Assembly: GCF_988243305.1 (NCBI RefSeq)
Contig: NZ_OZ547136.1
Direction: 5' to 3' (one strand)
DNA length: 64,000 nt
Of the stretch, positions 1-34,637 are shown one piece after another (position 1 is the first letter of the stretch; each line of letters opens with the position of its first letter). Made by a program: the position numbers and the translations under genes. The notes beneath the pieces are model-generated. The model had not been told where the DNA came from, did no database searches, and saw only the letters and a program-made list of their open reading frames with translations.

Positions 1-1039
1 TTTTTTTTGAAACATGTCCCCGAAACGGGCTTAAGGGTCCGGAAGGGGATAAATCCTGCTCCAGAACATTATAGTGCTCAATAAATATTTTTTGCGCTTC
101 AGGCGAAAAATGCAGACAATACCGTTCATCCTCACTGGATTTTTCAATACTGCCTCTGGCCAGTTCCATTAATCGTTCATGAAATGCCGTTAATGATCCT
201 CCCGGAATCACAGCTCCGTTAATAAAGCGTTTCCCCTGCGTGGTTGCAGGTTTACTGATAAGACAACGGGCAAGAAAACCACTGTCCCTGGCAACAGAAC
301 CTTTTCGCTCCATATATCGGTCAAAAAGACCGGGTTGCACCATGAGGGATAACGTCATTCTGGCATTTTCAATCATCTGTTCGGGTTCATTCTTTCTGTC
401 CACAGACAATACAGAGCCATCCCACATTTTGTTAATAAAAGGCAACTCAGACAGGGTATATCCATCAAATATAATACCGGCTTCATCTGACATAATACCA
501 ACTGAACGCCATTTACCACAAAGCTGATTCTTAATTGCCGCAGTCGTGGCATCATTAAAAATGAATTTATACCTCACAGGTTCTTCCGCACTGTTTTTCT
601 GAAGTACTTCCAGTTGTCTGAGGGTTTCTGACTCATCCGCGCCTTTGCGGAGTTCTTTATTCAGTTTTGACAACAATGCTTTTTTCTGAGCCTTTAAAAG
701 CTCTTCCTTGTTTTTCCAGACAGCCAGTTCACTTTTGTATCTGGAATATAACTGCATCTCCTGCTGGTACAGGGGCTTCATTAATAATTTGTCCACTGCG
801 GTTTTTCGTTCTCCGGACTCGGCAAGCGTCAGGAAAAAAAGAGAGACCGGCCCCCGCAGTGTATTCAGTCTGCAGACATCAATCAGATTCTGGCAGACAA
901 GTGAAACAGCGCCCAGGGCAGACGCTGCCACAAGCCCAAGGGGAGCCTGCGTAATTTGCTGAGCTTCAATAACGGCATCACGAATGAGTGGAGGCAGCGA
1001 ACTCAGGGGAAACTCATCACAAGGCTGACCGAATGACAT
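1..1039 (-). CDS. hypothetical island-associated protein; C-terminus cut by window start
   Basis: Manual reverse-strand translation from ATG at 1039-1037 (MSFGQPCDEFPLSSLPPLIRD...) stays open to position 2 (about 346 codons); absent from ORF track because no stop lies inside the window; only short + strand ORFs overlap it. Confidence 0.45.
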   Translation of the reverse strand, partial: MSFGQPCDEFPLSSLPPLIRDAVIEAQQITQAPLGLVAASALGAVSLVCQNLIDVCRLNTLRGPVSLFFLTLAESGERKTAVDKLLMKPLYQQEMQLYSRYKSELAVWKNKEELLKAQKKALLSKLNKELRKGADESETLRQLEVLQKNSAEEPVRYKFIFNDATTAAIKNQLCGKWRSVGIMSDEAGIIFDGYTLSELPFINKMWDGSVLSVDRKNEPEQMIENARMTLSLMVQPGLFDRYMERKGSVARDSGFLARCLISKPATTQGKRFINGAVIPGGSLTAFHERLMELARGSIEKSSEDERYCLHFSPEAQKIFIEHYNVLEQDLSPSGPLSPFRGHVSKK

Positions 1040-2269: not shown

Positions 2270-3142
2270 ATGAATCCGTCTGATGCCATTGAGGCAATTG
2301 AAAAACCGCTCTCCTCCCTGCCTTACTCACTTTCCCGTCACATCCTGGAACATCTGCGCAAACTCACCAGTCACGAACCCGTGATTGGCATTATGGGTAA
2401 AAGCGGGGCCGGTAAATCCTCACTCTGTAATGCACTGTTTCAGGGGGAGGTCACCCCGGTCAGTGATGTTCACGCCGGCACCCGGGAAGTGCGGCGCTTC
2501 CGTCTGAGTGGCCACGGTCACAGCATGGTTATCACTGACCTGCCCGGGGTGGGCGAGAGCCGGGACAGGGATGCAGAGTATGAAGCCCTGTACCGTGACA
2601 TTCTGCCCGAACTGGACCTGGTGCTGTGGCTGATTAAAGCCGATGACCGCGCCCTGTCTGTGGATGAGTATTTCTGGCGACACATCCTGCACCGGGGACA
2701 TCAGCAGGTGCTGTTTGTGGTGACGCAGGCCGACAAAACGGAGCCCTGCCATGAATGGGATATGGCCGGCATTCAGCCTTCTCCCGCACAGGCACAGAAC
2801 ATTCGGGAGAAAACGGAGGCGGTATTCCGTCTGTTCCGGCCCGTACATCCGGTTGTTGCCGTATCGGCCCGCACCGGCTGGGAACTGGATACGCTGGTCA
2901 GTGCGCTAATGACAGCACTTCCCGACCATGCCGCCAGTCCCCTGATGACCCGCCTGCAGGACGAGCTGCGCACGGAATCTGTCCGCGCTCAGGCCCGTGA
3001 ACAGTTTACCGGTGCGGTGGACCGGATATTTGACACGGCGGAGAGCGTCTGTGTTGCCTCTGTTGCCCGTACGGTTCTGCGTGCCGTCCGTGACACGGTG
3101 GTCTCTGTTGCCCGCGCTGTATGGAACTGGATTTTCTTCTGA
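2270..3142 (+). CDS. yeeP: YeeP/YfjP/YkfA-family GTPase (50S ribosome-binding GTPase-like)
   Basis: ORF 2231..3142; P-loop GIMGKSGAGKSSLCN and G3-like DLPGVGE motifs; ORF-track start is GTG at 2231, first in-frame ATG (MNPSD...) is at 2270; start choice uncertain. Confidence 0.7.
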   Translation: MNPSDAIEAIEKPLSSLPYSLSRHILEHLRKLTSHEPVIGIMGKSGAGKSSLCNALFQGEVTPVSDVHAGTREVRRFRLSGHGHSMVITDLPGVGESRDRDAEYEALYRDILPELDLVLWLIKADDRALSVDEYFWRHILHRGHQQVLFVVTQADKTEPCHEWDMAGIQPSPAQAQNIREKTEAVFRLFRPVHPVVAVSARTGWELDTLVSALMTALPDHAASPLMTRLQDELRTESVRAQAREQFTGAVDRIFDTAESVCVASVARTVLRAVRDTVVSVARAVWNWIFF

Positions 3143-3226
3143 ACAGTCTGCCAGGGAAATGCCTGATAACATTACGTTAACCAACTGAAAACATGACACA
3201 AACCCCTCATACTCCTCCTGTTTCTC

Positions 3227-3255
3227 TTGCGTGACCGCCTTGTCGTTAATAGAAT
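3227..3255 (+). promoter_or_regulatory. candidate sigma70 promoter of flu/agn43 (TTGCGT-17 bp-TAGAAT)
   Basis: -35-like ttgcgt 3227-3232, 17-bp spacer, -10-like tagaat 3250-3255, immediately upstream of the GATC cluster. Confidence 0.5.
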
Positions 3256-3260
3256 AAAAC

Positions 3261-3296
3261 GATCGATAAAACAGGTATTGATCGTTGCTATCGATC
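3261..3296. promoter_or_regulatory. three clustered GATC (Dam) sites; agn43 Dam/OxyR phase-variation region
   Basis: GATC at 3261-3264, 3280-3283 and 3293-3296 within 36 bp, about 220 bp upstream of the flu ATG; matches the known three-GATC OxyR operator architecture of agn43. Confidence 0.7.
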
Positions 3297-3513
3297 GTTT
3301 ATAGTGGTTAATGGTCTGCGAAAAGGCAGCTGAATCTCTTCATCATGCAGAACGGAATTGCACACAACGGACTGATACTTCTCTGGCGGATGAGAGAGGG
3401 GAAGCATTTATGTCCGGGAAAAACCACTTTATCTGAGCATGCTGTTTTGTACCTGCCGGTATCCACATTTGTGGGTACCGGCTTTTTTATTCACCCTCTG
3501 TAAGGAAAAGCTG

Positions 3514-6500
3514 ATGAAACGACATCTGAACACCAGCTACAGGCTGGTATGGAATCACATTACGGGCACCCTGGTGGTGGCCTCCGAACTGGCCCGCTCA
3601 CGGGGAAAACGCGCTGGTGTGGCGGTTGCGCTGTCTCTTGCTGCTGTCACATCAGTCCCGGCACTGGCTGCTGACAAGGTTGTACAGGCGGGAGAAACCG
3701 TGAACGACGGAACACTGACAAATCATGACAACCAGATTGTCCTCGGTACGGCCAACGGAATGACCATCAGTACCGGTCTGGAGTATGGGCCGGATAACGA
3801 GGCCAATACCGGCGGACAATGGATACAAAATGGCGGTATCGCCAACAACACTACTGTCACCGGTGGTGGTCTTCAGAGAGTGAATGCCGGAGGAAGCGTT
3901 TCAGACACGGTTATCAGTGCCGGAGGCGGACAGAGCCTTCAGGGGCAGGCAGTGAACACCACTCTGAACGGCGGTGAGCAGTGGGTACATGAAGGCGGGA
4001 TTGCAACGGGTACCGTCATTAATGAGAAGGGCTGGCAGGCCATCAAATCCGGCGCAGTGGCAACCGACACGGTTGTGAATACCGGCGCGGAAGGGGGACC
4101 GGATGCGGAAAATGGTGATACCGGGCAGACCGTCTACGGAGATGCCGTACGCACCACCATCAATAAAAATGGTCGTCAGATTGTGGCTGCTGAAGGAACG
4201 GCAAATACCACTGTGGTTTATGCCGGCGGCGACCAGACTGTACATGGTCACGCACTGGATACCACGCTGAATGGGGGGTACCAGTATGTGCACAACGGCG
4301 GTACGGCGTCTGGCACTGTTGTAAACAGTGACGGCTGGCAGATTGTCAAAAATGGGGGTGTGGCCGGGAATACCACCGTTAATCAGAAGGGCAGACTGCA
4401 GGTGGACGCCGGTGGTACAGCCACGAATGTCACCCTGAAGCAGGGCGGCGCACTGGTTACCAGTACGGCTGCAACCGTTACCGGCATAAACCGCCTGGGA
4501 GCATTCTCTGTTGTGGAGGGTAAAGCTGATAATGTCGTACTGGAAAATGGCGGACGCCTGGATGTGCTGACCGGACACACAGCCACTAATACCCGCGTGG
4601 ATGATGGCGGAACGCTGGATGTCCGCAACGGTGGCACCGCCACCACCGTATCCATGGGAAATGGCGGTGTACTGCTGGCCGATTCCGGTGCCGCTGTCAG
4701 TGGTACCCGGAGCGACGGAAAGGCATTCAGTATCGGAGGTGGTCAGGCGGATGCCCTGATGCTGGAAAAAGGCAGTTCATTCACGCTGAACGCCGGTGAT
4801 ACGGCCACGGATACCACGGTAAATGGCGGACTGTTCACCGCCAGGGGCGGCACACTGGCGGGCACCACCACGCTGAATAACGGCGCCATACTTACCCTTT
4901 CCGGGAAGACGGTGAACAACGATACCCTGACCATCCGTGAAGGCGATGCACTCCTGCAGGGAGGCTCTCTCACCGGTAACGGCAGCGTGGAAAAATCAGG
5001 AAGTGGCACACTCACTGTCAGCAACACCACACTCACCCAGAAAGCCGTCAACCTGAATGAAGGCACGCTGACGCTGAACGACAGTACCGTCACCACGGAT
5101 GTCATTGCTCAGCGCGGTACAGCCCTGAAGCTGACCGGCAGCACTGTGCTGAACGGTGCCATTGACCCCACGAATGTCACTCTCGCCTCTGGTGCCACCT
5201 GGAATATTCCCGATAACGCCACGGTGCAGTCGGTGGTGGATGACCTCAGCCATGCCGGACAGATTCATTTCACCTCCACCCGCACAGGGAAGTTCGTACC
5301 GGCAACCCTGAAAGTGAAAAACCTGAACGGACAGAATGGCACCATCAGCCTGCGTGTACGCCCGGATATGGCACAGAACAATGCTGACAGACTGGTCATT
5401 GACGGTGGCAGGGCAACCGGAAAAACCATCCTGAACCTGGTGAACGCCGGCAACAGTGCGTCGGGGCTGGCGACCAGCGGTAAGGGTATTCAGGTGGTGG
5501 AAGCCATTAACGGTGCCACCACGGAGGAAGGGGCCTTTATCCAGGGGAATAAGCTGCAGGCCGGTGCCTTTAACTACTCCCTCAACCGGGACAGTGATGA
5601 GAGCTGGTATCTGCGCAGTGAAAATGCTTATCGTGCAGAAGTCCCCCTGTATGCCTCCATGCTGACACAGGCAATGGACTATGACCGGATTCTGGCAGGC
5701 TCCCGCAGCCATCAGACCGGTGTAAGCGGTGAAAATAACAGCGTCCGTCTCAGCATTCAGGGCGGTCATCTCGGTCACGATAACAACGGCGGTATTGCCC
5801 GTGGAGCCACGCCGGAAAGCAGCGGCAGCTATGGCTTCGTCCGTCTGGAGGGTGACCTGCTCAGAACAGAGGTTGCCGGTATGTCTGTGACCGCGGGGGT
5901 ATATGGTGCTGCTGGCCATTCTTCCGTTGATGTTAAGGATGATGACGGCTCCCGTGCCGGCACGGTCCGGGATGATGCCGGCAGCCTGGGCGGATACCTG
6001 AATCTGATACACAACGCCTCCGGCCTGTGGGCTGACATTGTGGCCCAGGGAACCCGCCACAGCATGAAAGCCTCATCGGACAATAACGACTTCCGCGTCC
6101 GGGGCTGGGGCTGGCTGGGTTCGCTGGAAACCGGTCTGCCCTTCAGTATCACTGACAATCTGATGCTGGAGCCGCAACTGCAGTACACCTGGCAGGGACT
6201 CTCCCTGGATGACGGCCAGGATAACGCCAGTTATGTGAAGTTCGGGCATGGCAGTGCACAACATGTGCGTGCCGGCTTCCGTCTGGGCAGCCACCACGAT
6301 ATGAACTTTGGTAAAGGCACCTCATCCCGTGACACCCTGCGCGGCAGTGCCAAACACAGTGTGCGTGAACTGCCGGTGAACTGGTGGGTACAGCCTTCTG
6401 TTATCCGCACCTTCAGCTCCCGGGGGGGCATGAGCATGGGTACAGCCGCAGCCGGCAGTAACATGACGTTCTCACCGTCACAGAATGGTACGTCACTGGA

Positions 6501-6633
6501 CCTGCAGGCCGGACTGGAAGCCCGTGTCCGGGAAAATATCACCCTGGGCGTTCAGGCAGGTTATGTCCACAGCGTCAGCGGCAGCAGCGCTGAAGGCTAT
6601 AACGGTCAGGCCACGCTGAATGTGACCTTCTGA
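3514..6633 (+). CDS. flu: antigen 43 self-associating autotransporter
   Basis: ORF 3439..6633; canonical Ag43 N-terminus MKRHLNTSYRLVWNHITGTLVVASELARS begins at ATG 3514 after aaggaaaag; long beta-helical passenger with repetitive G/T/N-rich repeats and C-terminal beta-barrel ending in TLNVTF. Confidence 0.9.
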   Translation: MKRHLNTSYRLVWNHITGTLVVASELARSRGKRAGVAVALSLAAVTSVPALAADKVVQAGETVNDGTLTNHDNQIVLGTANGMTISTGLEYGPDNEANTGGQWIQNGGIANNTTVTGGGLQRVNAGGSVSDTVISAGGGQSLQGQAVNTTLNGGEQWVHEGGIATGTVINEKGWQAIKSGAVATDTVVNTGAEGGPDAENGDTGQTVYGDAVRTTINKNGRQIVAAEGTANTTVVYAGGDQTVHGHALDTTLNGGYQYVHNGGTASGTVVNSDGWQIVKNGGVAGNTTVNQKGRLQVDAGGTATNVTLKQGGALVTSTAATVTGINRLGAFSVVEGKADNVVLENGGRLDVLTGHTATNTRVDDGGTLDVRNGGTATTVSMGNGGVLLADSGAAVSGTRSDGKAFSIGGGQADALMLEKGSSFTLNAGDTATDTTVNGGLFTARGGTLAGTTTLNNGAILTLSGKTVNNDTLTIREGDALLQGGSLTGNGSVEKSGSGTLTVSNTTLTQKAVNLNEGTLTLNDSTVTTDVIAQRGTALKLTGSTVLNGAIDPTNVTLASGATWNIPDNATVQSVVDDLSHAGQIHFTSTRTGKFVPATLKVKNLNGQNGTISLRVRPDMAQNNADRLVIDGGRATGKTILNLVNAGNSASGLATSGKGIQVVEAINGATTEEGAFIQGNKLQAGAFNYSLNRDSDESWYLRSENAYRAEVPLYASMLTQAMDYDRILAGSRSHQTGVSGENNSVRLSIQGGHLGHDNNGGIARGATPESSGSYGFVRLEGDLLRTEVAGMSVTAGVYGAAGHSSVDVKDDDGSRAGTVRDDAGSLGGYLNLIHNASGLWADIVAQGTRHSMKASSDNNDFRVRGWGWLGSLETGLPFSITDNLMLEPQLQYTWQGLSLDDGQDNASYVKFGHGSAQHVRAGFRLGSHHDMNFGKGTSSRDTLRGSAKHSVRELPVNWWVQPSVIRTFSSRGGMSMGTAAAGSNMTFSPSQNGTSLDLQAGLEARVRENITLGVQAGYVHSVSGSSAEGYNGQATLNVTF

Positions 6634-6753
6634 CAGAACCATCGCCTCTCTGTGGTCCCGGTCATCATGATCGGGACCCGGACCGGCGCAACGGATATTC
6701 AACGCCACATTCGCTGGCATTAACAATAACATGATATTCATCACGGAGTGACT

Positions 6754-9270
6754 ATGTTACAGATAGTCGGCGCGCTGATCCTGCTGATCGCAGGATTTGC
6801 CATTCTTCGCCTTTTGTTCAGAGCATTAATCAGCACGGCTTCTGCGCTGGCAGGGCTCATATTGCTGTGTCTGTTCGGCCCGGCCTTACTGGCTGGCTAT
6901 ATCACCGAACGCATAACCCGGTTGTTCCATATTCGCTGGCTGGCAGGCGTATTTCTGACGATTGCCGGAATGATCATCAGCTTCATGTGGGGACTTGATG
7001 GTAAACATATCGCGCTGGAGGCTCACACCTTTGACTCTGTGAAATTTATTCTGACCACCGCTCTCGCCGGTGGTCTGCTGGCTGTTCCCCTGCAGATCAA
7101 AAACATTCAGCAGAACGGGATCACACCAGAAGATATCAGCAAGGAAATTAACGGGTATTACTGCTGTTTTTATACTGCCTTTTTCCTTATGGCGTGTTCT
7201 GCATGCGCACCATTGATCGCGTTACAGTACGATATTTCACCGTCACTGATGTGGTGGGGCGGGTTGTTGTACTGGCTGGCTGCATTAGTGACGCTGCTAT
7301 GGGCGGCCAGCCAAATCCAGGCGCTGAAAAAACTGACCTGTGCCATCAGCCAGACACTGGAAGAACAACCGGTGCTCAACAGTAAATCGTGGCTGACCAG
7401 TTTGCAAAACGATTACAGCCTTCCTGACTCACTGACGGAGCGCATCTGGCTGACGCTCATTTCTCAACGGATTTCCCGGGGAGAGCTGAGGGAATTTGAA
7501 CTGGCAGACGGAAACTGGTTACTGAACAATGCCTGGTATGAAAGAAACATGGCAGGGTTTAACGAACAGTTGAAAGAGAACCTGTCATTCACACCTGATG
7601 AACTGAAAACGCTCTTCCGGAACCGCCTGAATTTATCACCGGAAGCGAATGACGATTTTCTCGATCGTTGCCTGGACGGCGGTGACTGGTATCCCTTTTC
7701 AGAAGGTCGCCGTTTTGTATCATTCCATCACGTGGATGAGCTTCGTATCTGTGCCTCCTGCGGGCTGACAGAAGTACATCATGCCCCGGAAAATCATAAG
7801 CCGGATCCGGAATGGTACTGCTCCTCTCTTTGTCGCGAAACAGAAACACTGTGTCAGGAAATTTATGAACGCCCTTACAACAGCTTTATTTCCGATGCAA
7901 CGGCGAATGGTCTGATTCTCATGAAACTGCCGGAAACCTGGAGTACAAATGAGAAAATGTTTGCTTCCGGAGGGCAGGGACATGGGTTTGCCGCTGAACG
8001 GGGAAACCATATTGTCGACAGAGTCCGTCTGAAAAACGCACGGATCCTCGGTGATAATAATGCCAGAAATGGAGCAGACAGACTGGTCAGCGGAACAGAA
8101 ATCCAGACGAAATATTGTTCAACTGCAGCCCGTAGCGTCGGTGCGGCATTCGACGGACAAAACGGACAGTATCGTTACATGGGAAATAATGGCCCCATGC
8201 AACTGGAAGTCCCCCGTGATCAGTATGCCGGCGCTGTTGAAACCATGAGGAATAAGATCCGCGAAGGTAAAGTACCCGGTGTAACCGATCCCGCAGAAGC
8301 ATCCCGGCTGATTCGTCGGGGACATCTGACTTATACTCAGGCCCGTAATATCACCCGGTTCGGGACCATCGAATCGGTCACTTATGATATTGCCGAGGGT
8401 TCGGTTGTCAGTCTGGCGGCCGGAGGGATCAGTTTTGCCCTGACGGCATCGGTCTTCTGGCTCAGCACCGGCGATCGCGATGCTGCCCTGCAGACAGCTG
8501 CTGTCCAGGCAGGAAAAACCTTCACCCGCACACTGGCTGTCTACGTCACAACCCAGCAACTCCACCGGCTCAGTGTTGTTCAGGGTATGCTGAAGCACAT
8601 TGATTTTTCGACTGCCAGCCCGACTGTTCGACTGGCTCTTCAGAAGGGGACCGGTGCAGGAAATATCAGTGCCCTGAACAAAGTGATGAAGGGTACGCTG
8701 GTGACATCTCTGGCACTGGTAGCTGTCACAACCGGCCCTGACATGATCAAAATGTTGCGGGGACGGATCTCCGGTACGCAGTTCATCAGGAATCTTGCCG
8801 TGGCATCTTCCGGTGTGGCAGGTGGTGCTGTCGGGTCAGTGGCGGGCGGAATACTGTTCAGTCCACTGGGACCATTTGGTGCACTGACAGGGCGTGTGGT
8901 TGGCGGTGTTCTGGGGGGAATGATTGCCTCCGCTGTATCAGGAAAAATTGCCGGAGCGCTGGTTGAAGAAGATCGCGTCAAAATTCTGGCAATGATTCAG
9001 GAGCAGGTGACATGGCTTGCCGGCAGTTTCCTGCTGACCGGACATGAGATTGAAAATCTGAACGAGAATCTGGCCCGTGTTATCGATCAGAATGCTCTGG
9101 AGATCATTTTCGCCGCCGGTATACAACAACGGGCCGCGACCAATATGTTAATCAAACCACTGGTGGTCAGTATCATCAGGCAACGCCCCGTCATGGAATA
9201 TGATGCATCCCATCTCGGCAATATGGTTAACCGACTGGAAGAAGCATTACCCCCGGAGTTACCGGCATAA
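6754..9270 (+). CDS. yeeR: YeeR-like inner membrane protein (enlarged, about 838 aa)
   Basis: ORF 6748..9270; several hydrophobic N-terminal helices and a glycine-rich hydrophobic C-terminal block; sits directly after flu as yeeR does in CP4-44; ATG at 6754 preferred over GTG 6748 (ggag 5 nt upstream). Confidence 0.55.
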   Translation: MLQIVGALILLIAGFAILRLLFRALISTASALAGLILLCLFGPALLAGYITERITRLFHIRWLAGVFLTIAGMIISFMWGLDGKHIALEAHTFDSVKFILTTALAGGLLAVPLQIKNIQQNGITPEDISKEINGYYCCFYTAFFLMACSACAPLIALQYDISPSLMWWGGLLYWLAALVTLLWAASQIQALKKLTCAISQTLEEQPVLNSKSWLTSLQNDYSLPDSLTERIWLTLISQRISRGELREFELADGNWLLNNAWYERNMAGFNEQLKENLSFTPDELKTLFRNRLNLSPEANDDFLDRCLDGGDWYPFSEGRRFVSFHHVDELRICASCGLTEVHHAPENHKPDPEWYCSSLCRETETLCQEIYERPYNSFISDATANGLILMKLPETWSTNEKMFASGGQGHGFAAERGNHIVDRVRLKNARILGDNNARNGADRLVSGTEIQTKYCSTAARSVGAAFDGQNGQYRYMGNNGPMQLEVPRDQYAGAVETMRNKIREGKVPGVTDPAEASRLIRRGHLTYTQARNITRFGTIESVTYDIAEGSVVSLAAGGISFALTASVFWLSTGDRDAALQTAAVQAGKTFTRTLAVYVTTQQLHRLSVVQGMLKHIDFSTASPTVRLALQKGTGAGNISALNKVMKGTLVTSLALVAVTTGPDMIKMLRGRISGTQFIRNLAVASSGVAGGAVGSVAGGILFSPLGPFGALTGRVVGGVLGGMIASAVSGKIAGALVEEDRVKILAMIQEQVTWLAGSFLLTGHEIENLNENLARVIDQNALEIIFAAGIQQRAATNMLIKPLVVSIIRQRPVMEYDASHLGNMVNRLEEALPPELPA

Positions 9271-9345: not shown

Positions 9346-9801
9346 ATGATTCACCTGTTCAAAACCTGCATGATTACCGCCTTCATTCTGGGGTTAACGT
9401 GGTCTGCCCCACTCCGGGCACAGGATCAACGTTACATCAGTATACGCAATACAGATACGATATGGCTCCCGGGAAATATTTGTGCTTACCAGTTCCGGCT
9501 GGATAATGGCGGAAACGATGAAGGATTTGGCCCCCTCACCATCACTCTGCAACTCAAAGACAAATATGGTCAGACGCTGGTGACCAGAAAAATGGAAACG
9601 GAAGCTTTTGGTGACAGTAATGCCACGCGAACCACAGACGCATTTCTGGAAACGGAGTGCGTGGAAAATGTCGCCACAACCGAAATCATCAAAGCAACTG
9701 AAGAAAGTAACGGCCATCGTGTCAGTCTGCCGTTATCGGTTTTCAATCCCCAGGACTACCATCCACTGCTGATTACCGTTTCCGGAAAAAACGTTAACTG
9801 A
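9346..9801 (+). CDS. hypothetical secreted protein (signal peptide)
   Basis: ORF with N-terminal signal-like sequence MIHLFKTCMITAFILGLTWSAPLRA; gagagg RBS 8 nt upstream. Confidence 0.5.
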   Translation: MIHLFKTCMITAFILGLTWSAPLRAQDQRYISIRNTDTIWLPGNICAYQFRLDNGGNDEGFGPLTITLQLKDKYGQTLVTRKMETEAFGDSNATRTTDAFLETECVENVATTEIIKATEESNGHRVSLPLSVFNPQDYHPLLITVSGKNVN

Positions 9802-9879
9802 TCCCTGAAGTCAGTTTCATGCTTCAGCCTCTGTCACAACGCGTGGCAGAGGCTTTTTATTTATCAGGAGAAAACAGAT

Positions 9880-10113
9880 ATGCCGGGTTACACAGAGTAT
9901 GTCCTGGCTGAAGGATCTTTCTCATACGGGCAGGCGGTTGCTGTCATAACCGCTTACCGCAATGTGTTTATCCAGGATGACCCGGGAATGCATTTCCGTC
10001 GGGTTATCCGCAACGCGGAAGGTCAGCGACGCTGGCGCTGCCGGAATTCTGAACCCGATGCCGGAAAGGTGCTTAATACGCGGCTCGCCAGTGACGGTCT
10101 TCTCAGACAATAA
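9880..10113 (+). CDS. small island protein (DUF905/YkfF-like by position)
   Basis: 77-aa ORF with aggag RBS; occupies the slot of the small DUF905 gene preceding DUF932 in CP4-type modules; family assignment from memory only. Confidence 0.4.
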
Positions 10114-10212
10114 ACGTCATTCATTTCACCCATCAGGCCGCGTCTTCTCCGGGAGACGTGGCTTTTTCATTTATTACACCAGTAAATCTTAACCACCGAT
10201 AAGGAGCAAATT

Positions 10213-11031
10213 ATGCGACTAGCCAGTCGTTTTGGTTATGCGAACCAGATACGCCGTGACCGTCCGCTGACACACGAAGAACTGATGCACTATGTGCCGG
10301 GGATTTTCGGGGAAGATAAACACACGTCCCGAAGCCAGAACTATACGTACATCCCCACCATCACCGTACTGGAAAGCCTGCAGCGGGAAGGCTTTCAGCC
10401 ATTCTTCGCCTGCCAGACCCGTGTGCGCGACCCGGGCCGCCGGGGATACACAAAACACATGCTGCGTCTGCGGCGGGCCGGAGAGATAAACGGAGAACAT
10501 GTCCCTGAAATTATTCTGCTCAACTCTCATGACGGTACCTCCAGCTACCAGATGCTGCCGGGTTACTTCAGGTTCGTCTGCCAGAACGGATGCGTCTGTG
10601 GTCAGTCTCTGGGGGAAGTGCGTGTTCCGCACCGGGGAAATGTGGTGGACAGAGTCATTGAAGGGGCTTACGAGGTGGTGGGCGTGTTTGACCGGATTGA
10701 GGAAAAGCGTGATGCCATGCAGTCGCTGATTCTGCCGCCACCGGCACGCCAGGCGCTGGCACAGGCGGCACTGACTTACCGTTATGGTGACGAACATCAG
10801 CCCGTCACCACCGCCGACATTCTGACGCCACGACGCCGGGAGGATTACGGTAAGGACCTGTGGAGTGCTTATCAGACCATTCAGGAGAATATGCTGAAAG
10901 GCGGAATTTCAGGTCGCAGCGCTAAAGGAAAACGTATCCATACCCGTGCCATTCACAGCATTGACACTGACATTAAGCTCAACCGCGCATTGTGGGTGAT
11001 GGCGGAAACCCTGCTGGAGAGCCTGCGCTGA
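10213..11031 (+). CDS. DUF932 family protein (YfjQ/YafZ-like)
   Basis: 272-aa ORF with aaggag RBS; length and position match the YfjQ/YafZ family of CP4 prophage-like islands. Confidence 0.6.
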   Translation: MRLASRFGYANQIRRDRPLTHEELMHYVPGIFGEDKHTSRSQNYTYIPTITVLESLQREGFQPFFACQTRVRDPGRRGYTKHMLRLRRAGEINGEHVPEIILLNSHDGTSSYQMLPGYFRFVCQNGCVCGQSLGEVRVPHRGNVVDRVIEGAYEVVGVFDRIEEKRDAMQSLILPPPARQALAQAALTYRYGDEHQPVTTADILTPRRREDYGKDLWSAYQTIQENMLKGGISGRSAKGKRIHTRAIHSIDTDIKLNRALWVMAETLLESLR

Positions 11032-11085
11032 TTCAGCCATTACCCTGAAAACCACGCATTTATTTGTCCTTTAAGGAGTCATTTC

Positions 11086-11571
11086 ATGAAAACCATTTCA
11101 CATAATTCCACCACATCTTCTGTTTCCGTAACCGCTGCATCAGGGAATGACCAGCCTCAGTTGGTTGCCACCCTCGTCCCTGATGAACAGCGCATCAGCT
11201 TCTGGCCGCAGCACTTTGGCCTCATTCCACAGTGGGTGACCCTGGAGCCCCGTGTCTTCGGCTGGATGGACCGTCTGTGTGAAGACTACTGCGGTGGTAT
11301 CTGGAATCTGTACACCCTGAACAACGGCGGGGCATTTATGGCACCCGAACCGGATGACGATGATGACGAAACATGGGTACTGTTCAATGCCATGAACGGT
11401 AACCGCGCTGAAATGAGTCCGGAAGCTGCCGGCATTGCTGCCTGTCTGATGACGTACAGTCATCATGCCTGTCGTACGGAGTGTTATGCCATGACGGTCC
11501 ATTATTACCGGCTGCGGGATTACGCCCTGCAGCATCCGGAATGCAGCGCCATTATGCGCATCATCGACTGA
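11086..11571 (+). CDS. antirestriction protein (ArdB/KlcA-like, YfjX/YafX family)
   Basis: 161-aa ORF, aaggag RBS, acidic DDDDDE stretch; conserved position upstream of the radC-like gene. Confidence 0.6.
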   Translation: MKTISHNSTTSSVSVTAASGNDQPQLVATLVPDEQRISFWPQHFGLIPQWVTLEPRVFGWMDRLCEDYCGGIWNLYTLNNGGAFMAPEPDDDDDETWVLFNAMNGNRAEMSPEAAGIAACLMTYSHHACRTECYAMTVHYYRLRDYALQHPECSAIMRIID

Positions 11572-11586
11572 ATGGAGAGAAGTACA

Positions 11587-12063
11587 ATGCAACAGCTTTC
11601 CTTTCTGCCCGGAGAGATGACGCCCGGCGAGCGCAGCCTCATTCAACGGGCCCTGAAAACCCTGGACCGCCATCTTCATGAACCCGGCGTGGCCTTCACC
11701 TCCACCCGTGCGGCACGAGAATGGCTGATTCTGAACATGGCGGGACTGGAGCGTGAAGAGTTCCGGGTGCTGTATCTGAACAACCAGAATCAGCTGATTG
11801 CCGGTGAAACCCTCTTCACCGGCACCATCAACCGCACGGAAGTCCATCCCCGTGAAGTGATTAAACGCGCCCTGTATCACAATGCCGCTGCTGTGGTGCT
11901 GGCACACAATCACCCGTCCGGTGAAGTCACACCCAGCAAGGCAGACCGCCTTATCACGGAACGTCTGGTACAGGCACTGGGCCTGGTGGATATCCGGGTG
12001 CCGGACCATCTGATAGTCGGTGGCAGCCAGGTTTTCTCCTTTGCCGAACATGGTCTGCTTTAA
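11587..12063 (+). CDS. yeeS: RadC-like JAB-domain protein
   Basis: JAMM-like motif HNHPSGEVTPSKADRLIT; K-12 YeeS-like N-terminus MQQLSFLPGEMTPGERS at ATG 11587 (ORF-track start 11572). Confidence 0.75.
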   Translation: MQQLSFLPGEMTPGERSLIQRALKTLDRHLHEPGVAFTSTRAAREWLILNMAGLEREEFRVLYLNNQNQLIAGETLFTGTINRTEVHPREVIKRALYHNAAAVVLAHNHPSGEVTPSKADRLITERLVQALGLVDIRVPDHLIVGGSQVFSFAEHGLL

Positions 12064-12125
12064 CCCGTCACAACCACATCACACCTGTTTTCACTTTTAT
12101 CTTCTGTCTTCAGAGGTATCCCACT

Positions 12126-12347
12126 ATGAAAATCATCACCCGTGGCGAAGCCATGCGTATTCACCGTCAGCATCCGGCATCCCGTCTTTTTCCGTTCTGT
12201 ACCGGCAAATACCGCTGGCACGGCAGTGCTGAAGCGTATACCGGTCGTGAAGTGCAGGATATTCCCGGTGTGCTGGCCGTATTTGCAGAACGCCGTAAGG
12301 ACAGTTTTGGTCCGTATGTCCGGCTGATGAGCGTCACCCTGAACTGA
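12126..12347 (+). CDS. yeeT: DUF987 small protein
   Basis: 73-aa ORF MKIITRGEAMRIHRQHPASRLFPFCTGKYRWHG, in the conserved position upstream of cbeA. Confidence 0.6.
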   Translation: MKIITRGEAMRIHRQHPASRLFPFCTGKYRWHGSAEAYTGREVQDIPGVLAVFAERRKDSFGPYVRLMSVTLN

Positions 12348-12509
12348 TGTTCCGTCACCCGGAAAACGAGTACGACTGGCTGAGCTCAGACGCCGCTGTG
12401 GATGAGGTCCTGCTCATCAACGAATACACCTTTACCGAAGCCGGTCTGCGCGCCGGCTGACCCGTCATCGTTAAACTATCATTCACCGATTTTCTGTGAG
12501 GATTTTATC

Positions 12510-12878
12510 GTGTCAGACACACTTTCCGGGACAACGCATCCCGATGACAATGACGACCATCCCTGGTGGGGACTACCCTGCACAGTGACGCCCTGTTTCG
12601 GCGCCCGTCTGGTGCAGGAGGGTAACCGCCTGCATTACCTTGCCGACCGCGCCGGTATCAGAGGCCTGTTCAGCGATGCAGATGCGTACCACCTGGACCA
12701 GGCCTTTCCGCTGCTGATGAAACAACTGGAACTCATGCTCACCAGCGGTGAACTGAATCCCCGCCATCAGCATACCGTCACGCTGTATGCAAAAGGTCTG
12801 ACCTGCAAAGCTGACACTCTCGGTAGCGGTGGTTACGTTTATCTGGCTGTTTATCCGACGCCCGAAACGAAAAAGTAA
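12510..12878 (+). CDS. cbeA: CbeA antitoxin (YeeU family, type IV TA)
   Basis: In-frame GTG at 12510 gives a 122-aa product [38 protein letters not shown]...; the ORF-track start at 12402 is probably an upstream extension. Confidence 0.8.
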
Positions 12879-12967
12879 ACCACCGGAATAACCTTCTGCT
12901 CCGGCCTGGTGCTTTCACCACGCCACTTTTCCATTTTTCATCTCTGCATATCAGGAAAACCTTCAGT

Positions 12968-13342
12968 ATGAAAACATTACCCGATACACACGTACGGGAG
13001 GCATCGAGCTGCCCGTCTCCCGTCACCATCTGGCAGACTCTGCTCTCCCGACTACTGGGCCAGCATTACGGCCTTACACTGAATGACACACCGTTCGCCG
13101 ATGAACGTGTGATTGAGCAGCATATTGAAGCTGGCATTTCACTGTGTGATGCGGTGAATTTTCTCGTGGAAAAATACGCGCTGGTGCGTACCGACCAGCC
13201 GGGATTCAGCACTTGTCCCCGCTCTCAGTTAATAAACAGTATTGATATCCTCCGGGCTCGCAGGGCGACCGGCCTGATGACCCGCGACAATTACAGAACG
13301 GTAAATAACATTACCCTGGGTAAGCATCCGGAGAAACGATGA
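12968..13342 (+). CDS. cbtA: CbtA toxin (YeeV family; cytoskeleton-targeting)
   Basis: 124-aa ORF immediately downstream of cbe[71 protein letters not shown]. Confidence 0.8.
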
Positions 13343-13827
13343 AACTTTCCCTGATGCTGGAAGCCGACAGAATTAATGTGCAGGCACTGAACATGGGGCG
13401 AATTGTCGTTGACGTCGATGGTGTTAATCTCACTGAACTGATTAACAAGGTCGCTGAAAACGGTTATTCACTCCGCGTGGTGGAGGAATCCGACCAACAG
13501 TCAACCTGCACACTACCACCGTTTGCAACCCTTGCCGGCATACGCTGCAGTACCGCACATATCACGGAAAAGGATAACGCCTGGCTGTACTCGCTGTCGC
13601 ATCAGACCAGTGACGTTGGTGAATCAGAATGGATTCATTTCACAGGTAGCGGATATCTGTTACGTACCGATGCGTGGTCATATCCGGTTCTGCGGCTTAA
13701 ACGCCTGGGGCTGTCAAAAACGTTCCGTCGTCTGGTTATCACACTTACCCGACGTTATGGCGTCAGTCTCATTCATCTGGATGCCAGCGCTGAATGCCTG
13801 CCGGGTTTACCCACTTTCAACTGGTAA
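13339..13827 (+). CDS. yeeW: YeeW-like protein
   Basis: 162-aa ORF overlapping the cbtA stop by 4 bp (ATGA), the position yeeW holds in CP4-44. Confidence 0.5.
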
Positions 13828-13838
13828 CCAGGAACAAC

Positions 13839-14036
13839 ATGAAATCATTAACCACGGAAACCGCACTGGATATTCTGATTGCGTGGCTGCAGGACAATAT
13901 CGACTGCGAATCGGGAATTATCTTTGACAACAATGAGGATAAAACGGATTCAGCAGCACTGTTGCCCTGTATCGAACAGGCCAGAGAGGATATCCGTACC
14001 CTGCGCCAACTGCAGCTTCAGCACCAGAACCGGTGA
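13839..14036 (+). CDS. small hypothetical protein (65 aa)
   Basis: ATG at 13839 preceded by aggaa; followed by a clear terminator. Confidence 0.35.
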   Translation: MKSLTTETALDILIAWLQDNIDCESGIIFDNNEDKTDSAALLPCIEQAREDIRTLRQLQLQHQNR

Positions 14037-14066
14037 GTCTTACTCACCAGACTTCATTCCACTGAC

Positions 14067-14097
14067 GCCAGCCTGAACAGGGCTGGCATTTTCATTT
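14067..14097 (+). terminator. rho-independent terminator
   Basis: Stem gccagcc (14067-14073) / ggctggc (14081-14087), loop tgaacag, then attttcattt. Confidence 0.6.
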
Positions 14098-14753
14098 ATC
14101 TGCAAAAAGGAATATCGATTATGTCTGATATCACAGCCTACCGTCCGGAAGTGGTCAACGAGAATACGGACGTTATCTGCTCAACCAGCATCCGCCGCAT
14201 TCTGGCTGTACGAAAGAGTTCACTGCTGCAAATCGACACAATTATCCGGCATCAAGTGAGCGATATCAGTTAACAGATATAGATGGAGAAGATGCTTTTA
14301 TCCGGATTGGTTCTATCGCGATGGTGCGAGTACTACTTGATGCAATGAAGCCTGTCGAGGAAGATGACGAGTAACAGAGCTCGGTATCTCAATCAGGAGC
14401 TGATTGTCCTGGTTCGATGCCGAAAACCAGTGATTTTTCGTGTTGGTATCTGTGTTGGTATAAGATGATATTGTTTATTATTAACAATTTTAAATCATGA
14501 GGTTAAGTCACATGTTTGAGTCCGGCCTTCGCACCTTCGCACCTTCGCACCATCGGAACATCAATAGACATCAACGGACGTTTTTTTATGACTGAAATCC
14601 GCGCCACACAAGGCTTTTCGCTATTTTTCGCTCAACCTAAGTCAACCTACATCAACTTACTGATGTGGATACAGCTACAGCTGCGGCTATACCCCGATTC
14701 GATAATGTTTGTACCCACACAAAACCCTTGAAAGGCTACAAGGCTGAAATTGT

Positions 14754-15238
14754 CTAAACCATAGAGATGATTTTTATGATCCAGTCTTTCTCTTGTTGAG
14801 ATAGTTCCAGTTTGCTCACTCGTGTTAAGAAGGTATTGATCACCTGAACATCCGAATTGGTGAGCCTATTTAATAGAGCGGGTGGTATACCTTTACTAAC
14901 AATCGCTTTGCGGTGACTTTCGTAGTTTTTATTACTCATTGTTGATCCTAAAAAATCATTGTATGGCGGCATTGATCGTTTCCAGCAACCTTTACTTACT
15001 CACTTCGAACTGCATCCTCGTAGACTGTTCCACTACAATAATCGAAAAGGCGCGGATGTCCATTCAGGTATCCCGCTAATACGTATAGCAATAACAATGG
15101 CTTATGCGGCGCGCGCTGTTCACCCTTGTGCCAGATTTTTATATTGGCAATTGCCTGCTGTAGCGATTTACTGGAAGCTATTGATATCCCTGGCAGTGAA
15201 ATAATTGCGATCATGCTCGCAAATTTTCTGCTGTTCAA
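14754..15238 (-). pseudogene. possible disrupted gene (two adjacent short ORFs, 80 aa and 72 aa)
   Basis: ORFs 14996..15238 and 14754..14972 on the same strand in different frames separated by 23 bp; divergent from the HNH gene; no recognisable family. Confidence 0.25.
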
Positions 15239-22040: not shown

Positions 22041-22049
22041 TTGGGGCCA
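22041..22049. repeat. fimS left inverted repeat (IRL)
   Basis: ttggggcca. Confidence 0.9.
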
Positions 22050-22345: not shown

Positions 22346-22354
22346 TGGCCCCAA
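22346..22354. repeat. fimS right inverted repeat (IRR)
   Basis: tggccccaa, reverse complement of IRL. Confidence 0.9.
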
Positions 22355-29243: not shown

Positions 29244-30585
29244 ACGCTACCATGCTAATAATCAGCACAATAATCAGCCCAACCACGGAGTTGACCAGCT
29301 CCAGCAGACCCCAGGTTTTCAACGTGTCTTTTACTGACAGGTCAAAGTAACCTTTGAACAACCAGAAAGATGCATCGTTAATGTGGGTGAGGGTGTTGGA
29401 ACCCGCAGCCGTCGCCAGTACCAGCAGCGCCGGATTCACGCCAACCAGCTGACCAGTTGCTGGATCAAGGATTGCTGCACTGATAATCCCGGCAGCGGTC
29501 ATCGCCGAAACGACACCCTGACCCGTCGCCAGACGAATCAGTACGGTGATCAGCCATGCCATGATGTAGGGCGAGATATTGCCGTGGGACATCAACATGC
29601 CGATGGTGTCGCCAATGCCGGTGTCGATGATGGTCTGCTTCAGCACGCCACCCGCACCGATGATCAGAATCACCATTGCAATACTCTTCACCGCGCTTTC
29701 AAAAGCGTTCATCACCCACTGCATGTCATGACCACGCGCGGTACCAAAGAGTACGAATGCAACCACCATCGCAATAAACATCGCAATCGGCGAGGAACCA
29801 ATAAAGTTAACCACTTCCCAGGCAGGGGTATCTTTTACCAGCCAGATATTGGCGATGGTGGTGGAGATCATAATGATCGCTGGGATCAGCGGCACCAGAA
29901 TCGAAACGCCGAAAGAGGGCAGATTATTCATATCAACCGGTTGATCTGCTTTCAGGAATGATGGCGTTGGGCGCTCAAGATTGCCGAGGAACTTCGGCAG
30001 GATCAGACCTGCGCAGATGACACTTGGGATCGTCACCAGTACGCCATAGATATAAACCATCCCCATATCTGCGCCATAAGCATTCACCAGCGCCACCGGA
30101 CCCGGCTGCGGTGGGAACAGTGAATGTGCGGTAGTGGCAGCTGCTACTGCCGGGATCGCCAGTTTCAGGAACGGAATTTTAGCTTCGGCGGCAATAACAA
30201 TAACCAGCGGCGCTAACATGATAAAGGCCACTTCATAGAACATCGCCAGACCGAAAATCAGGCCGATGATAATCACCGACAGCTGTACATAGCGCAGACC
30301 GAGACGCGCCAGCAGCGTATGTGCTATCTGGTGAGCCGCGCCGGAGTCGACCATCAATTTACCGATGACCGCACCGAACACCACGATGATAGCCAGTTCC
30401 CCCAGCGTGTTGCCGAAGCCCGCTTTCATGGTGTGCAGCAGCGACATCAAATCCATGCCCGCCAGCATCCCGACGGACAGCGCCGCCACCAACAAAGCCA
30501 CCATTGAATTGATTTTGAACTTCAAATTCAGTACCAGCATCAGACCAATGCCGAATACCACCCAGAGAATGTTAAGCACATGCAT
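29242..30585 (-). CDS. gntP: gluconate/fructuronate transporter (GntP family)
   Basis: 447-aa polytopic membrane ORF; recognised GntP sequence. Confidence 0.9.
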
Positions 30586-32189: not shown

Positions 32190-33650
32190 ATGACTACTAT
32201 TGTTGACAGCAATCTGCCGGTTGCCCGCCCGTCATGGGATCATTCTCGTCTGGAATCACGCATTGTGCATCTCGGTTGCGGGGCGTTTCACCGCGCGCAC
32301 CAGGCGCTGTATACCCATCATCTGCTGGAAAGCACCGACAGCGACTGGGGTATCTGCGAAGTTAACCTGATGCCAGGTAACGACCGCGTGCTGATCGAAA
32401 ACCTGAAAAAACAGCAACTGCTGTACACCGTGGCGGAAAAAGGCGCAGAAAGCACCGAGCTGAAAATTATCGGTTCGATGAAAGAAGCGCTGCATCCGGA
32501 AATCGACGGCTGCGAAGGTATTCTCAACGCGATGGCGCGTCCGCAGACGGCGATTGTCTCCCTGACGGTCACAGAGAAAGGTTATTGTGCCGATGCGGCA
32601 AGCGGTCAGTTGGATCTCAATAACCCGCTGATCAAGCACGATCTGGAAAACCCGACTGCGCCGAAGTCCGCGATTGGTTACATCGTCGAAGCCTTGCGTC
32701 TGCGTCGTGAAAAAGGGCTGAAAGCGTTTACGGTGATGTCCTGCGACAACGTGCGTGAAAACGGTCATGTGGCGAAGGTCGCGGTTCTGGGGCTGGCTCA
32801 GGCGCGTGATCCACAGCTGGCGGCATGGATTGAAGAGAACGTCACCTTCCCGTGCACCATGGTTGACCGCATCGTTCCGGCGGCGACGGCAGAAACCTTA
32901 CAGGAAATTGCTGACCAGCTGGGTGTTTACGACCCATGCGCCATTGCCTGCGAACCGTTCCGTCAGTGGGTGATTGAAGATAACTTCGTTAATGGTCGTC
33001 CGGACTGGGATAAAGTGGGCGCACAGTTCGTTGCAGACGTTGTGCCGTTCGAAATGATGAAACTGCGTATGCTGAACGGCAGCCACTCTTTCCTGGCGTA
33101 CCTCGGTTACCTCGGCGGCTATGAAACCATTGCCGACACCATGACTAACCCGGATTATCGCAAAGCGGCCTTCGCCCTGATGATGCAGGAACAAGCGCCA
33201 ACGCTGTCGATGCCGGAAGGTACAGACCTGAACGCCTATGCGACGCTGCTGATCGAGCGTTTCAGTAACCCGTCTCTGCGTCACCGTACCTGGCAGATTG
33301 CGATGGACGGCAGCCAGAAGTTACCGCAGCGTCTGCTGGATCCGGTGCGTCTGCACCTGCAAAACGGCGGTAGCTGGCGTCACCTGGCGCTGGGCGTGGC
33401 TGGCTGGATGCGTTACACCCAGGGCGTGGATGAGCAGGGTAAAGCTATTGACGTGGTCGACCCGATGCTGGCGGAGTTCCAGAAGATCAACGCGCAGTAT
33501 CAGGGCGCAGACCGCGTGAAAGCGCTGCTGGGCCTGAGCGGTATCTTTGCCGATGATCTGCCGCAGAATGCCGACTTTGTTGGCGCGGTGACGGCGGCAT
33601 ATCAGCAGCTGTGCGAACGCGGTGCGCGCGAGTGTGTGGCTGCGCTGTAA
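32190..33650 (+). CDS. uxuB: D-mannonate oxidoreductase (fructuronate reductase)
   Basis: 486-aa ORF; N-terminal Rossmann motif HLGCGAFHRAHQA. Confidence 0.95.
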   Translation: MTTIVDSNLPVARPSWDHSRLESRIVHLGCGAFHRAHQALYTHHLLESTDSDWGICEVNLMPGNDRVLIENLKKQQLLYTVAEKGAESTELKIIGSMKEALHPEIDGCEGILNAMARPQTAIVSLTVTEKGYCADAASGQLDLNNPLIKHDLENPTAPKSAIGYIVEALRLRREKGLKAFTVMSCDNVRENGHVAKVAVLGLAQARDPQLAAWIEENVTFPCTMVDRIVPAATAETLQEIADQLGVYDPCAIACEPFRQWVIEDNFVNGRPDWDKVGAQFVADVVPFEMMKLRMLNGSHSFLAYLGYLGGYETIADTMTNPDYRKAAFALMMQEQAPTLSMPEGTDLNAYATLLIERFSNPSLRHRTWQIAMDGSQKLPQRLLDPVRLHLQNGGSWRHLALGVAGWMRYTQGVDEQGKAIDVVDPMLAEFQKINAQYQGADRVKALLGLSGIFADDLPQNADFVGAVTAAYQQLCERGARECVAAL

Positions 33651-33863: not shown

Positions 33864-34637
33864 ATGAAATCTGCCACCTCTGCGCAAAGACCTTACCAGG
33901 AAGTCGGGGCGATGATCCGCGATCTGATCATAAAGACGCCGTACAATCCTGGCGAACGGCTGCCGCCGGAGCGTGAAATTGCAGAAATGCTTGATGTCAC
34001 GCGGACGGTGGTACGTGAAGCGCTGATCATGCTGGAGATCAAAGGGCTGGTGGAAGTGCGCCGGGGTGCCGGTATTTATGTTCTTGATAGCTCAGACAGC
34101 CAGAACACAGACAGTCCGGATGCCAACGTCTGCAATGATGCCGGTCCTTTTGAGCTGTTACAGGCGCGTCAGTTACTGGAAAGTAACATCGCGGAATTTG
34201 CCGCCCTGCAGGCTACCCGCGAAGATATCGTCAAAATGCGTCAGGCATTGCAACTGGAAGAGCGTGAGCTTGCTTCCAGCGCGCCGGGCAGCAGCGAAAG
34301 TGGTGACATGCAGTTCCATCTCGCCATTGCCGAAGCGACGCATAACAGCATGCTGGTGGAGCTATTCCGTCAGTCCTGGCAGTGGCGGGAAAACAATCCG
34401 ATGTGGATCCAGTTGCACAGCCATCTGGATGACAGCCTGTATCGCAAAGAGTGGTTGGGCGATCACAAACAGATCCTCGCCGCGTTAATCAAAAAAGATG
34501 CCCGTGCGGCGAAGCTGGCAATGTGGCAGCATCTGGAAAACGTTAAGCAACGTCTGCTGGAATTCTCGAACGTTGACGATATTTATTTTGACGGCTATCT
34601 GTTTGATTCATGGCCGTTGGATAAAGTCGACGCCTGA
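33864..34637 (+). CDS. uxuR: GntR-family transcriptional repressor UxuR
   Basis: 257-aa ORF; N-terminal winged-HTH (EREIAEMLDVTRTVVREAL) and FCD domain. Confidence 0.95.
   Translation: MKSATSAQRPYQEVGAMIRDLIIKTPYNPGERLPPEREIAEMLDVTRTVVREALIMLEIKGLVEVRRGAGIYVLDSSDSQNTDSPDANVCNDAGPFELLQARQLLESNIAEFAALQATREDIVKMRQALQLEERELASSAPGSSESGDMQFHLAIAEATHNSMLVELFRQSWQWRENNPMWIQLHSHLDDSLYRKEWLGDHKQILAALIKKDARAAKLAMWQHLENVKQRLLEFSNVDDIYFDGYLFDSWPLDKVDA

Follow-up and report, generated by a model that had tools for sequence, protein, structure and literature searches.

The window, by which we mean the whole 64,000-nucleotide stretch of DNA analysed, very probably carries the known epigenetic switch of antigen 43 in functional form, and agn43 (flu) is predicted to phase-vary in this strain. 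The Dam/OxyR mechanism of agn43 is established for Escherichia coli K-12 (PMC3764049, PMC4872104, PMC13337833). A preliminary description of the DNA had matched the region to this switch, and the match holds, every sequence-level hallmark being present and in the same register as in K-12 and a dozen further E. coli copies. The sequence elements, their conservation and their homology are documented here, and the features are collected with their coordinates in Table 1.

For this strain we infer the start site, OxyR binding, differential methylation, switching and co-transcription, and the elements would work together as follows. A sigma-70 promoter (TTGCGT, 17 nt, TAGAAT) would start transcription at about G3261. 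On unmethylated DNA an OxyR tetramer would occupy the half-sites at 3249-3263 (over the -10 hexamer) and 3281-3295; once bound, it would block RNA polymerase and shield the three GATC sites from Dam, giving a heritable OFF state. Dam methylation of the GATC sites after replication would exclude OxyR and leave the promoter free, giving a heritable ON state. Many transcripts in ON cells would stop at 3455-3488 and yield an IsrC-like RNA, and read-through would produce an agn43-yeeR-irmA mRNA ending near 9860. Neither dam nor oxyR lies within the 64-kb window. Dam and OxyR are core genes in E. coli, and both are assumed to be present in the host because the organism is E. coli.

Table 1. Features of the predicted agn43 switch, its leader and its operon, with positions in the window
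Feature	Position	Strand	Basis and remarks
yeeP-like GTPase gene, intact	2270-3142		Upstream of agn43; 1297KP annotation
-35-like hexamer TTGCGT, 3/6 to TTGACA	3227-3232	+	Reading; TTG at the same position in 13/13 other E. coli copies
Predicted upstream OxyR half-site ATAGAATAAAACGAT, 8/10 to ATAGnTnnnAnCTAT	3249-3263 (-12 to +3)		Consensus match; overlaps -10 and GATC-I
-10 hexamer TAGAAT	3250-3255	+	Reading; in conserved block AATAGAATAAAACGATC
Predicted transcription start (+1), G of GATC-I	3261	+	Homology to K-12 isrC 5' end and EC958 RACE start
Three Dam target sites: GATC-I 3261-3264, GATC-II 3280-3283, GATC-III 3293-3296	3261-3296		Direct reading
Predicted IsrC-like RNA (terminated agn43 leader), ~228 nt	~3261-3488	+	Rfam RF00124, terminator, homology
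Rare T (C elsewhere) immediately 5' of GATC-II, in central spacer of operator	3279	+	Comparison
Predicted downstream OxyR half-site ATCGTTGCTATCGAT, 8/10	3281-3295 (+21 to +35)		Consensus match; spans GATC-II and GATC-III
Intrinsic terminator/attenuator in leader	3455-3488	+	12-bp stem GCCGGTATCCAC/GTGGGTACCGGC, loop ATTT, then TTTTTT
agn43 (flu), full-length Ag43 autotransporter, 1039 aa	3514-6633	+	Annotation, NCBIfam, K-12 comparison
yeeR-like gene, full-length, 838 aa, second gene of operon	6754-9270	+	Hypothetical protein in 1297KP annotation
irmA, 151 aa, third gene of operon	9346-9801	+	Annotated IrmA family; 99% identical to Nissle IrmA
Strong intrinsic terminator immediately downstream of irmA	9826-9862 (9826-9854, then T-run)	+	12-bp stem, 7 GC pairs, then TTTTTATTT

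The window is E. coli DNA, its first 25 kb being 99.4% identical to several complete genomes. Its agn43 upstream region was placed in register with the K-12 yeeP-flu spacer and 12 other E. coli agn43/cah upstream regions, giving a comparison set of 14 sequences. On re-reading, the GATC sites that the preliminary description had placed at 3261, 3280 and 3293, inside 36 bp, were found at the same positions; the distance to the flu ATG (3514-3516), given there as about 220 bp, measures 217 nt from the end of GATC-III. The three sites correspond to 1818/1837/1850 of the K-12 sequence used for comparison. Their spacing (I-II 19 bp, II-III 13 bp) is identical in all 14 E. coli copies and in three Citrobacter/Enterobacter loci.

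A TTGCGT-17-TAGAAT promoter had also been proposed just upstream of the GATC sites, and all of its elements lie where they were said to be, with a 17-nt spacer reading GACCGCCTTGTCGTTAA. Thirteen of the 14 E. coli copies share an identical block from the -10 hexamer through GATC-I, AATAGAATAAAACGATC, and the block is almost invariant overall. In the Nissle 1917 agn43 copy (at about 7094-7099 of its sequence) the -10 hexamer is AAGAAT, not TAGAAT, a change that also alters the ATAG arm of the upstream OxyR half-site. The -35 hexamer TTGCGT is weak, and a consensus promoter scan did not call the pair, which matches at 8 of 12 positions and falls below the scan threshold; support for this promoter comes from positional homology together with start sites mapped in other strains. 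The scan did call TTGATC-16-TATAGT at 3278-3305, but the -35 of this pair relies on the rare T3279, and for that reason it was discarded as a candidate for the main promoter.

G3261, with which GATC-I begins, is the probable transcription start; it lies six nucleotides past the -10 hexamer. In K-12 the isrC annotation begins at the G of GATC-I, and Wallecha et al. (2002) reportedly placed the start at the G of the upstream GATC. Nissle-type leaders have GATC-I exactly 228 nt ahead of the ATG, which equals the distance found by 5'-RACE in UPEC strain EC958, where the agn43-yeeR-irmA mRNA starts 228 bp upstream of the ATG (PMC4807369). The GATC sites had been described as lying just downstream of the promoter. 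The hexamers are indeed upstream of all three, but GATC-I does not lie past the start site; it coincides with the predicted +1, as judged from the K-12 isrC 5' end and the EC958 RACE result.

OxyR half-sites were scored against the dimer consensus ATAGnTnnnAnCTAT, as quoted in PMC2909390, which has 10 specified positions. A score of at least 8 is reached at only 20 of the ~64,000 positions of the window, and the pair at 3249-3263 and 3281-3295, whose starts are 32 bp apart, is the only one in the 64 kb with this spacing and a summed score of 16. The OxyR site overlapping the GATC sites and the promoter is a predicted site, found by consensus matching only. The 15-mer at 3249-3263 is shared unchanged by 13 of the 14 E. 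coli copies, with a single difference in Nissle, and in the three Citrobacter/Enterobacter loci it differs at one or two unspecified positions. Both half-sites are retained in every leader type and in all three genera; the centre is variable.

The OxyR site of K-12 is drawn as a compact four-element site with half-sites 22 bp apart. No such compact site was found here, as the upstream half-site in this register (3259-3273) scores 2/10 in the window versus 6/10 in K-12. With the two half-sites conserved and the compact register at 2/10, conservation favours the extended pair, which would place one OxyR dimer on the -10 hexamer. We infer that such an arrangement fits the K-12 OxyR DNase I footprint, which presumably runs from -16 to +42 (equal to 3245-3302 in the window). 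This operator type lacks the K-12 CTAT arm, which would permit a compact four-groove site. Were the extended 32-bp pair, the geometry of reduced OxyR, the only one available, oxidised OxyR might fail to hold the OFF state, and oxidative stress would push Ag43, YeeR and IrmA towards ON in most E. coli. We consider this distinctly improbable. In K-12, by contrast, agn43 phase variation is reported to be independent of the oxidation state of OxyR. The direct evidence for the switch all comes from K-12-type or Nissle-type operators, and in the literature searched there were neither experiments on this strain nor experimental or methylome data for this operator type or for cah.

A switch that is present but altered is the alternative that survives best, although it too is unlikely. 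T3279 and the divergent left half of the operator would then weaken OxyR binding or limit it to one geometry, with an ON bias or a changed switching rate relative to K-12. Position 3279 is C in all 13 other E. coli copies, and of 3274 matching records only 14 contain the 68-mer 3245-3312 exactly. T3279 also breaks the ATCGATA-N7-TATCGAT dyad present in other sequences of this operator type, and the low score in the compact register (2/10, against 6/10 in K-12) points in the same direction. Against alteration, position 3279 is outside the specified positions of the OxyR consensus, in the variable central stretch, and Enterobacter wuhouensis has the same T. Furthermore, both 8/10 half-sites and the three GATC sites are untouched, and among E. 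coli this operator type, in its C3279 form, is in the majority. The same substitution creates the promoter-like match TTGATC-16-TATAGT at 3278-3305.

The full agn43 leader, to position 3513, is 253 nt long. Rfam RF00124 (IS102 RNA) matches 3259-3495 with 69.9 bits (gathering score 46; model positions 1-206), compared with 252.6 bits on the annotated K-12 isrC and 258.2 bits on the Nissle leader. Homology to RF00124 does not cover the whole RNA: only the 5' ~40 nt and the 3' ~50 nt align, and the replaced middle has insertions of 41 and 63 nt where the model has 35 and 35. Megablast matches to K-12 strains are confined to query positions 308-372, the final 65 nt of the spacer. The ~150-nt middle is a non-homologous cassette with respect to K-12, for which MAFFT finds no real alignment. 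Alignment to the K-12 flu regulatory region, suggested in the preliminary description as a check, therefore holds at both ends of the region but not across this middle. A 13-nt gap that MAFFT placed between GATC-I and GATC-II was false, and the ungapped register is correct. The leader type of the window is the commoner one, found in 3445 of 5426 complete genomes versus 1781 for the K-12 type (at least 80% query coverage).

The predicted IsrC-like RNA ends at an intrinsic terminator that shortly precedes the ribosome-binding site of agn43. This terminator (hairpin 3455-3482 plus T6) ends 26 nt before the ATG and was found in six of six leader variants examined, in AST46 with one stem mismatch; one pair of its stem is U-G in K-12 and in the window, and U-A in Nissle. 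An IsrC-like RNA had been suggested for 3143-3513. The RF00124 match bears out its presence, but the span is narrower, ~3261-3488. As the 5' end of IsrC is the agn43 start and its 3' end is the leader terminator, IsrC here would be the terminated leader made from the same phase-variable promoter; judged from these ends, the IsrC-like RNA is predicted to be prematurely terminated agn43 leader with no separate gene.

Were IsrC instead a gene for a trans-acting small RNA, transcribed independently from a promoter of its own and apart from agn43 regulation, its annotation as an ncRNA in K-12 and its own Rfam family would be accounted for, and the second promoter-like match, TTGATC-16-TATAGT at 3278-3305, might serve it. 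This is very unlikely, since the RNA begins where agn43 transcription starts, at GATC-I, and ends at the leader terminator, and the second promoter-like match depends on the rare T3279. In addition, the literature treats IsrC as the agn43 leader (PMC5389530), and the central ~150 nt are unrelated between leader types (69.9 versus 252.6 bits), which argues against a conserved base-pairing function.

Expression of flu is controlled by antitermination of IsrC (PMC5389530), and an upstream open reading frame was tested as an explanation. Such a frame, ATG-started and in the 'LYLPVSTFVGTGFFIHP' frame, occurs in five of six leader variants and is absent in AST46; it is without a Shine-Dalgarno sequence and appears in 14-37% of shuffles per variant. 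In the window a 52-codon ATG-started frame at 3345-3503 (+) runs across the leader terminator, its stop lying 11 nt short of the agn43 ATG. In K-12 the frame over the leader terminator is in frame with flu.

The gene downstream of the leader encodes an Ag43-family autotransporter, scoring 1898 bits against NCBIfam NF033177 (cut-off 1200) and showing 94% identity to K-12 Flu over 1039 aa, ungapped. Residues 246-675 are 100% identical to K-12 Flu, and the N- and C-terminal parts diverge. This mosaic structure, together with the non-homologous middle of the leader (3300-3445), implies recombination within the locus.

agn43, yeeR and irmA are intact and lie on one strand. On the + strand, no terminator-like site was found between the agn43 stop and the irmA stop, and 9826-9862 is the first such site past the leader attenuator. 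Repression by OxyR and co-transcription of agn43-yeeR-irmA have been shown in UPEC, the latter only in EC958, and agn43 was up 121-fold in an oxyR mutant of EC958 (PMC4807369). The absence of an internal terminator, taken with the EC958 data, suggests that the switch controls a three-gene operon of ~6.6 kb. It probably drives agn43-yeeR-irmA as a single operon ending at the post-irmA terminator. Moriel et al. could not map the 3' end of the operon by 3'-RACE (PMC4807369), and the terminator at 9826-9862 is a candidate for it. YeeR and IrmA have no match in NCBIfam or PHROGs. IrmA, a cytokine-receptor mimic, is protective as a vaccine antigen (PMC4807369), and an intact switch predicts population heterogeneity of all three operon products in this strain.

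GATC clustering alone is not distinctive in the window. There are six GATC triplets within 36 bp, as against 1.1 ± 1.1 (maximum 4) in 200 dinucleotide shuffles, and among the six the agn43 triplet is the sole instance of 19/13-bp spacing. The five others lie at 29866-29887, 32613-32643, 33914-33929, 53996-54029 and 55948-55968, none of them spaced 19/13. The surroundings of the agn43 triplet are GATC-poor, with no GATC for 1120 bp upstream and 3376 bp downstream. The six triplets might be taken to mean that the cluster is chance or a relic with no regulatory role, agn43 being constitutive or silent, a reading that can practically be dismissed given that its spacing and flanks are conserved across three genera and across leader types otherwise without homology, that it overlaps two strong predicted OxyR half-sites and the -10 hexamer, and that it sits in DNA otherwise depleted of GATC.

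Depletion of GATC extends over the agn43 open reading frame, which has none in four alleles, down to 88.8% nucleotide identity. Synonymous-codon permutation gives an expectation of ~9 ± 2.3, and zero was reached in 0 of 2000 permutations. Long GATC-free tracts in the window are 3297-6668 and 9918-14777; the 4.86 kb from the DUF905 to the DUF957 gene contain zero GATC versus a Markov expectation of 22.6. GATC density in yeeR-irmA is normal. Depletion in agn43 is strongest for GATC, and TCGA, ACGT and AATT are depleted too, so an insulating role of GATC absence for the switch is not established. The GATC-free tracts may reflect general palindrome avoidance in a mobile island rather than a tie to the switch.

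When bacteria were scanned with one genome per species, the same module turned up in Citrobacter braakii (5108-5146, minus strand), Enterobacter wuhouensis (5671-5709, minus strand) and Citrobacter amalonaticus (940-978, plus strand). All three loci keep TAGAAT and the 19/13 spacing, with GTAAC or ATAAC replacing AAAAC between the -10 hexamer and GATC-I. The stretch from GATC-I to GATC-II varies among operator types. The Citrobacter/Enterobacter modules follow a yeeP-like GTPase gene, and a 154-aa signal-peptide protein is encoded ~90 nt later; neither Ag43 nor the IsrC terminator was found after the module at these loci. The 154-aa protein of Citrobacter has no Pfam or NCBIfam match, and its PHROG match is only to a function-unknown family. 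From this distribution the switch looks like a portable module, which may phase-vary other secreted cargo. A switch of the window's E. coli agn43 type was also seen on a 1.56-kb contig labelled Collinsella sp. MAG (JAIJJM010000733.1), which is probably mis-binned Enterobacteriaceae DNA.

The gene order around the switch, taken from the annotation of the near-identical strain 1297KP, is YfjI family protein, yeeP-like GTPase, agn43, the 838-aa hypothetical protein and IrmA, followed by DUF905, DUF932, antirestriction protein, YeeS, YeeT, CbeA, CbtA, nanM, nanC and the fim operon. Between fimE and fimA lies the fimS invertible element, with 9-bp inverted repeats TTGGGGCCA at 22041-22049 and 22346-22354. 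fimS is a second, recombinase-based phase switch inside the same 64-kb window.

The agn43 switch is a textbook system, already known and present in most E. coli genomes, and the copy described here leaves knowledge of its mechanism unchanged. Its bearing is on genome annotation: K-12 represents the less common type of regulatory region, IsrC should carry the label of agn43 leader, and the operon probably ends at the terminator following irmA.

The closest comparison is with agn43 of the K-12 CP4-44 prophage. The two share AATAGAATAAAACGATC, three GATC sites spaced 19/13, a downstream half-site of the type ATCG-N7-CGAT, the leader terminator, the ribosome-binding region and an upstream yeeP-like GTPase gene. 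They differ in the -35 hexamer (TTGCGT in the window, TTGTCC in K-12) and between GATC-I and GATC-II, where the window is without the K-12 CTAT arm. The leader is 253 nt in the window and 222 nt in K-12, with ~150 nt non-homologous. Furthermore, yeeP and yeeR are intact and irmA is present in the window, whereas K-12 has a yeeP pseudogene, a shorter yeeR and no irmA. The island adjoins nanC/fim in the window but occupies the CP4-44 site in K-12.

The agn43-yeeR-irmA loci of UPEC strains EC958, CFT073 and 83972 (Moriel et al. 2016, PMC4807369) resemble the window in gene order, in an OxyR-repressed operator type and in a mapped start at about GATC-I. Nissle 1917, a relative of CFT073, served as proxy for the EC958 and CFT073 loci, and judged from it the UPEC copies have a K-12-like leader of 228 nt, unlike that of the window.

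More distant parallels are found in other methylation-dependent switches. Salmonella gtr (P22, LT2) and opvAB likewise combine OxyR half-sites with GATC pairs 13 bp apart (PMC2909390), and the half-site spacing of gtr, derived here from the published GATC coordinates, is 32 bp, the same as in the window. The half-site arrangement of gtr is, according to its authors, consistent with reduced OxyR (PMC2909390), and in both gtr and opvAB methylation blocks OxyR and OxyR blocks Dam (PMC2909390, PMC4856963). However, the Salmonella switches work with three or four alternatively occupied half-sites and an activating OxyR, whereas agn43 has a single repressing site over its promoter. The pap Lrp/Dam system is alike in the heritable competition of Dam with a DNA-binding regulator at GATC sites, but it uses Lrp and PapI rather than OxyR, and it has two GATC boxes 102 bp apart, with mutually exclusive sites.
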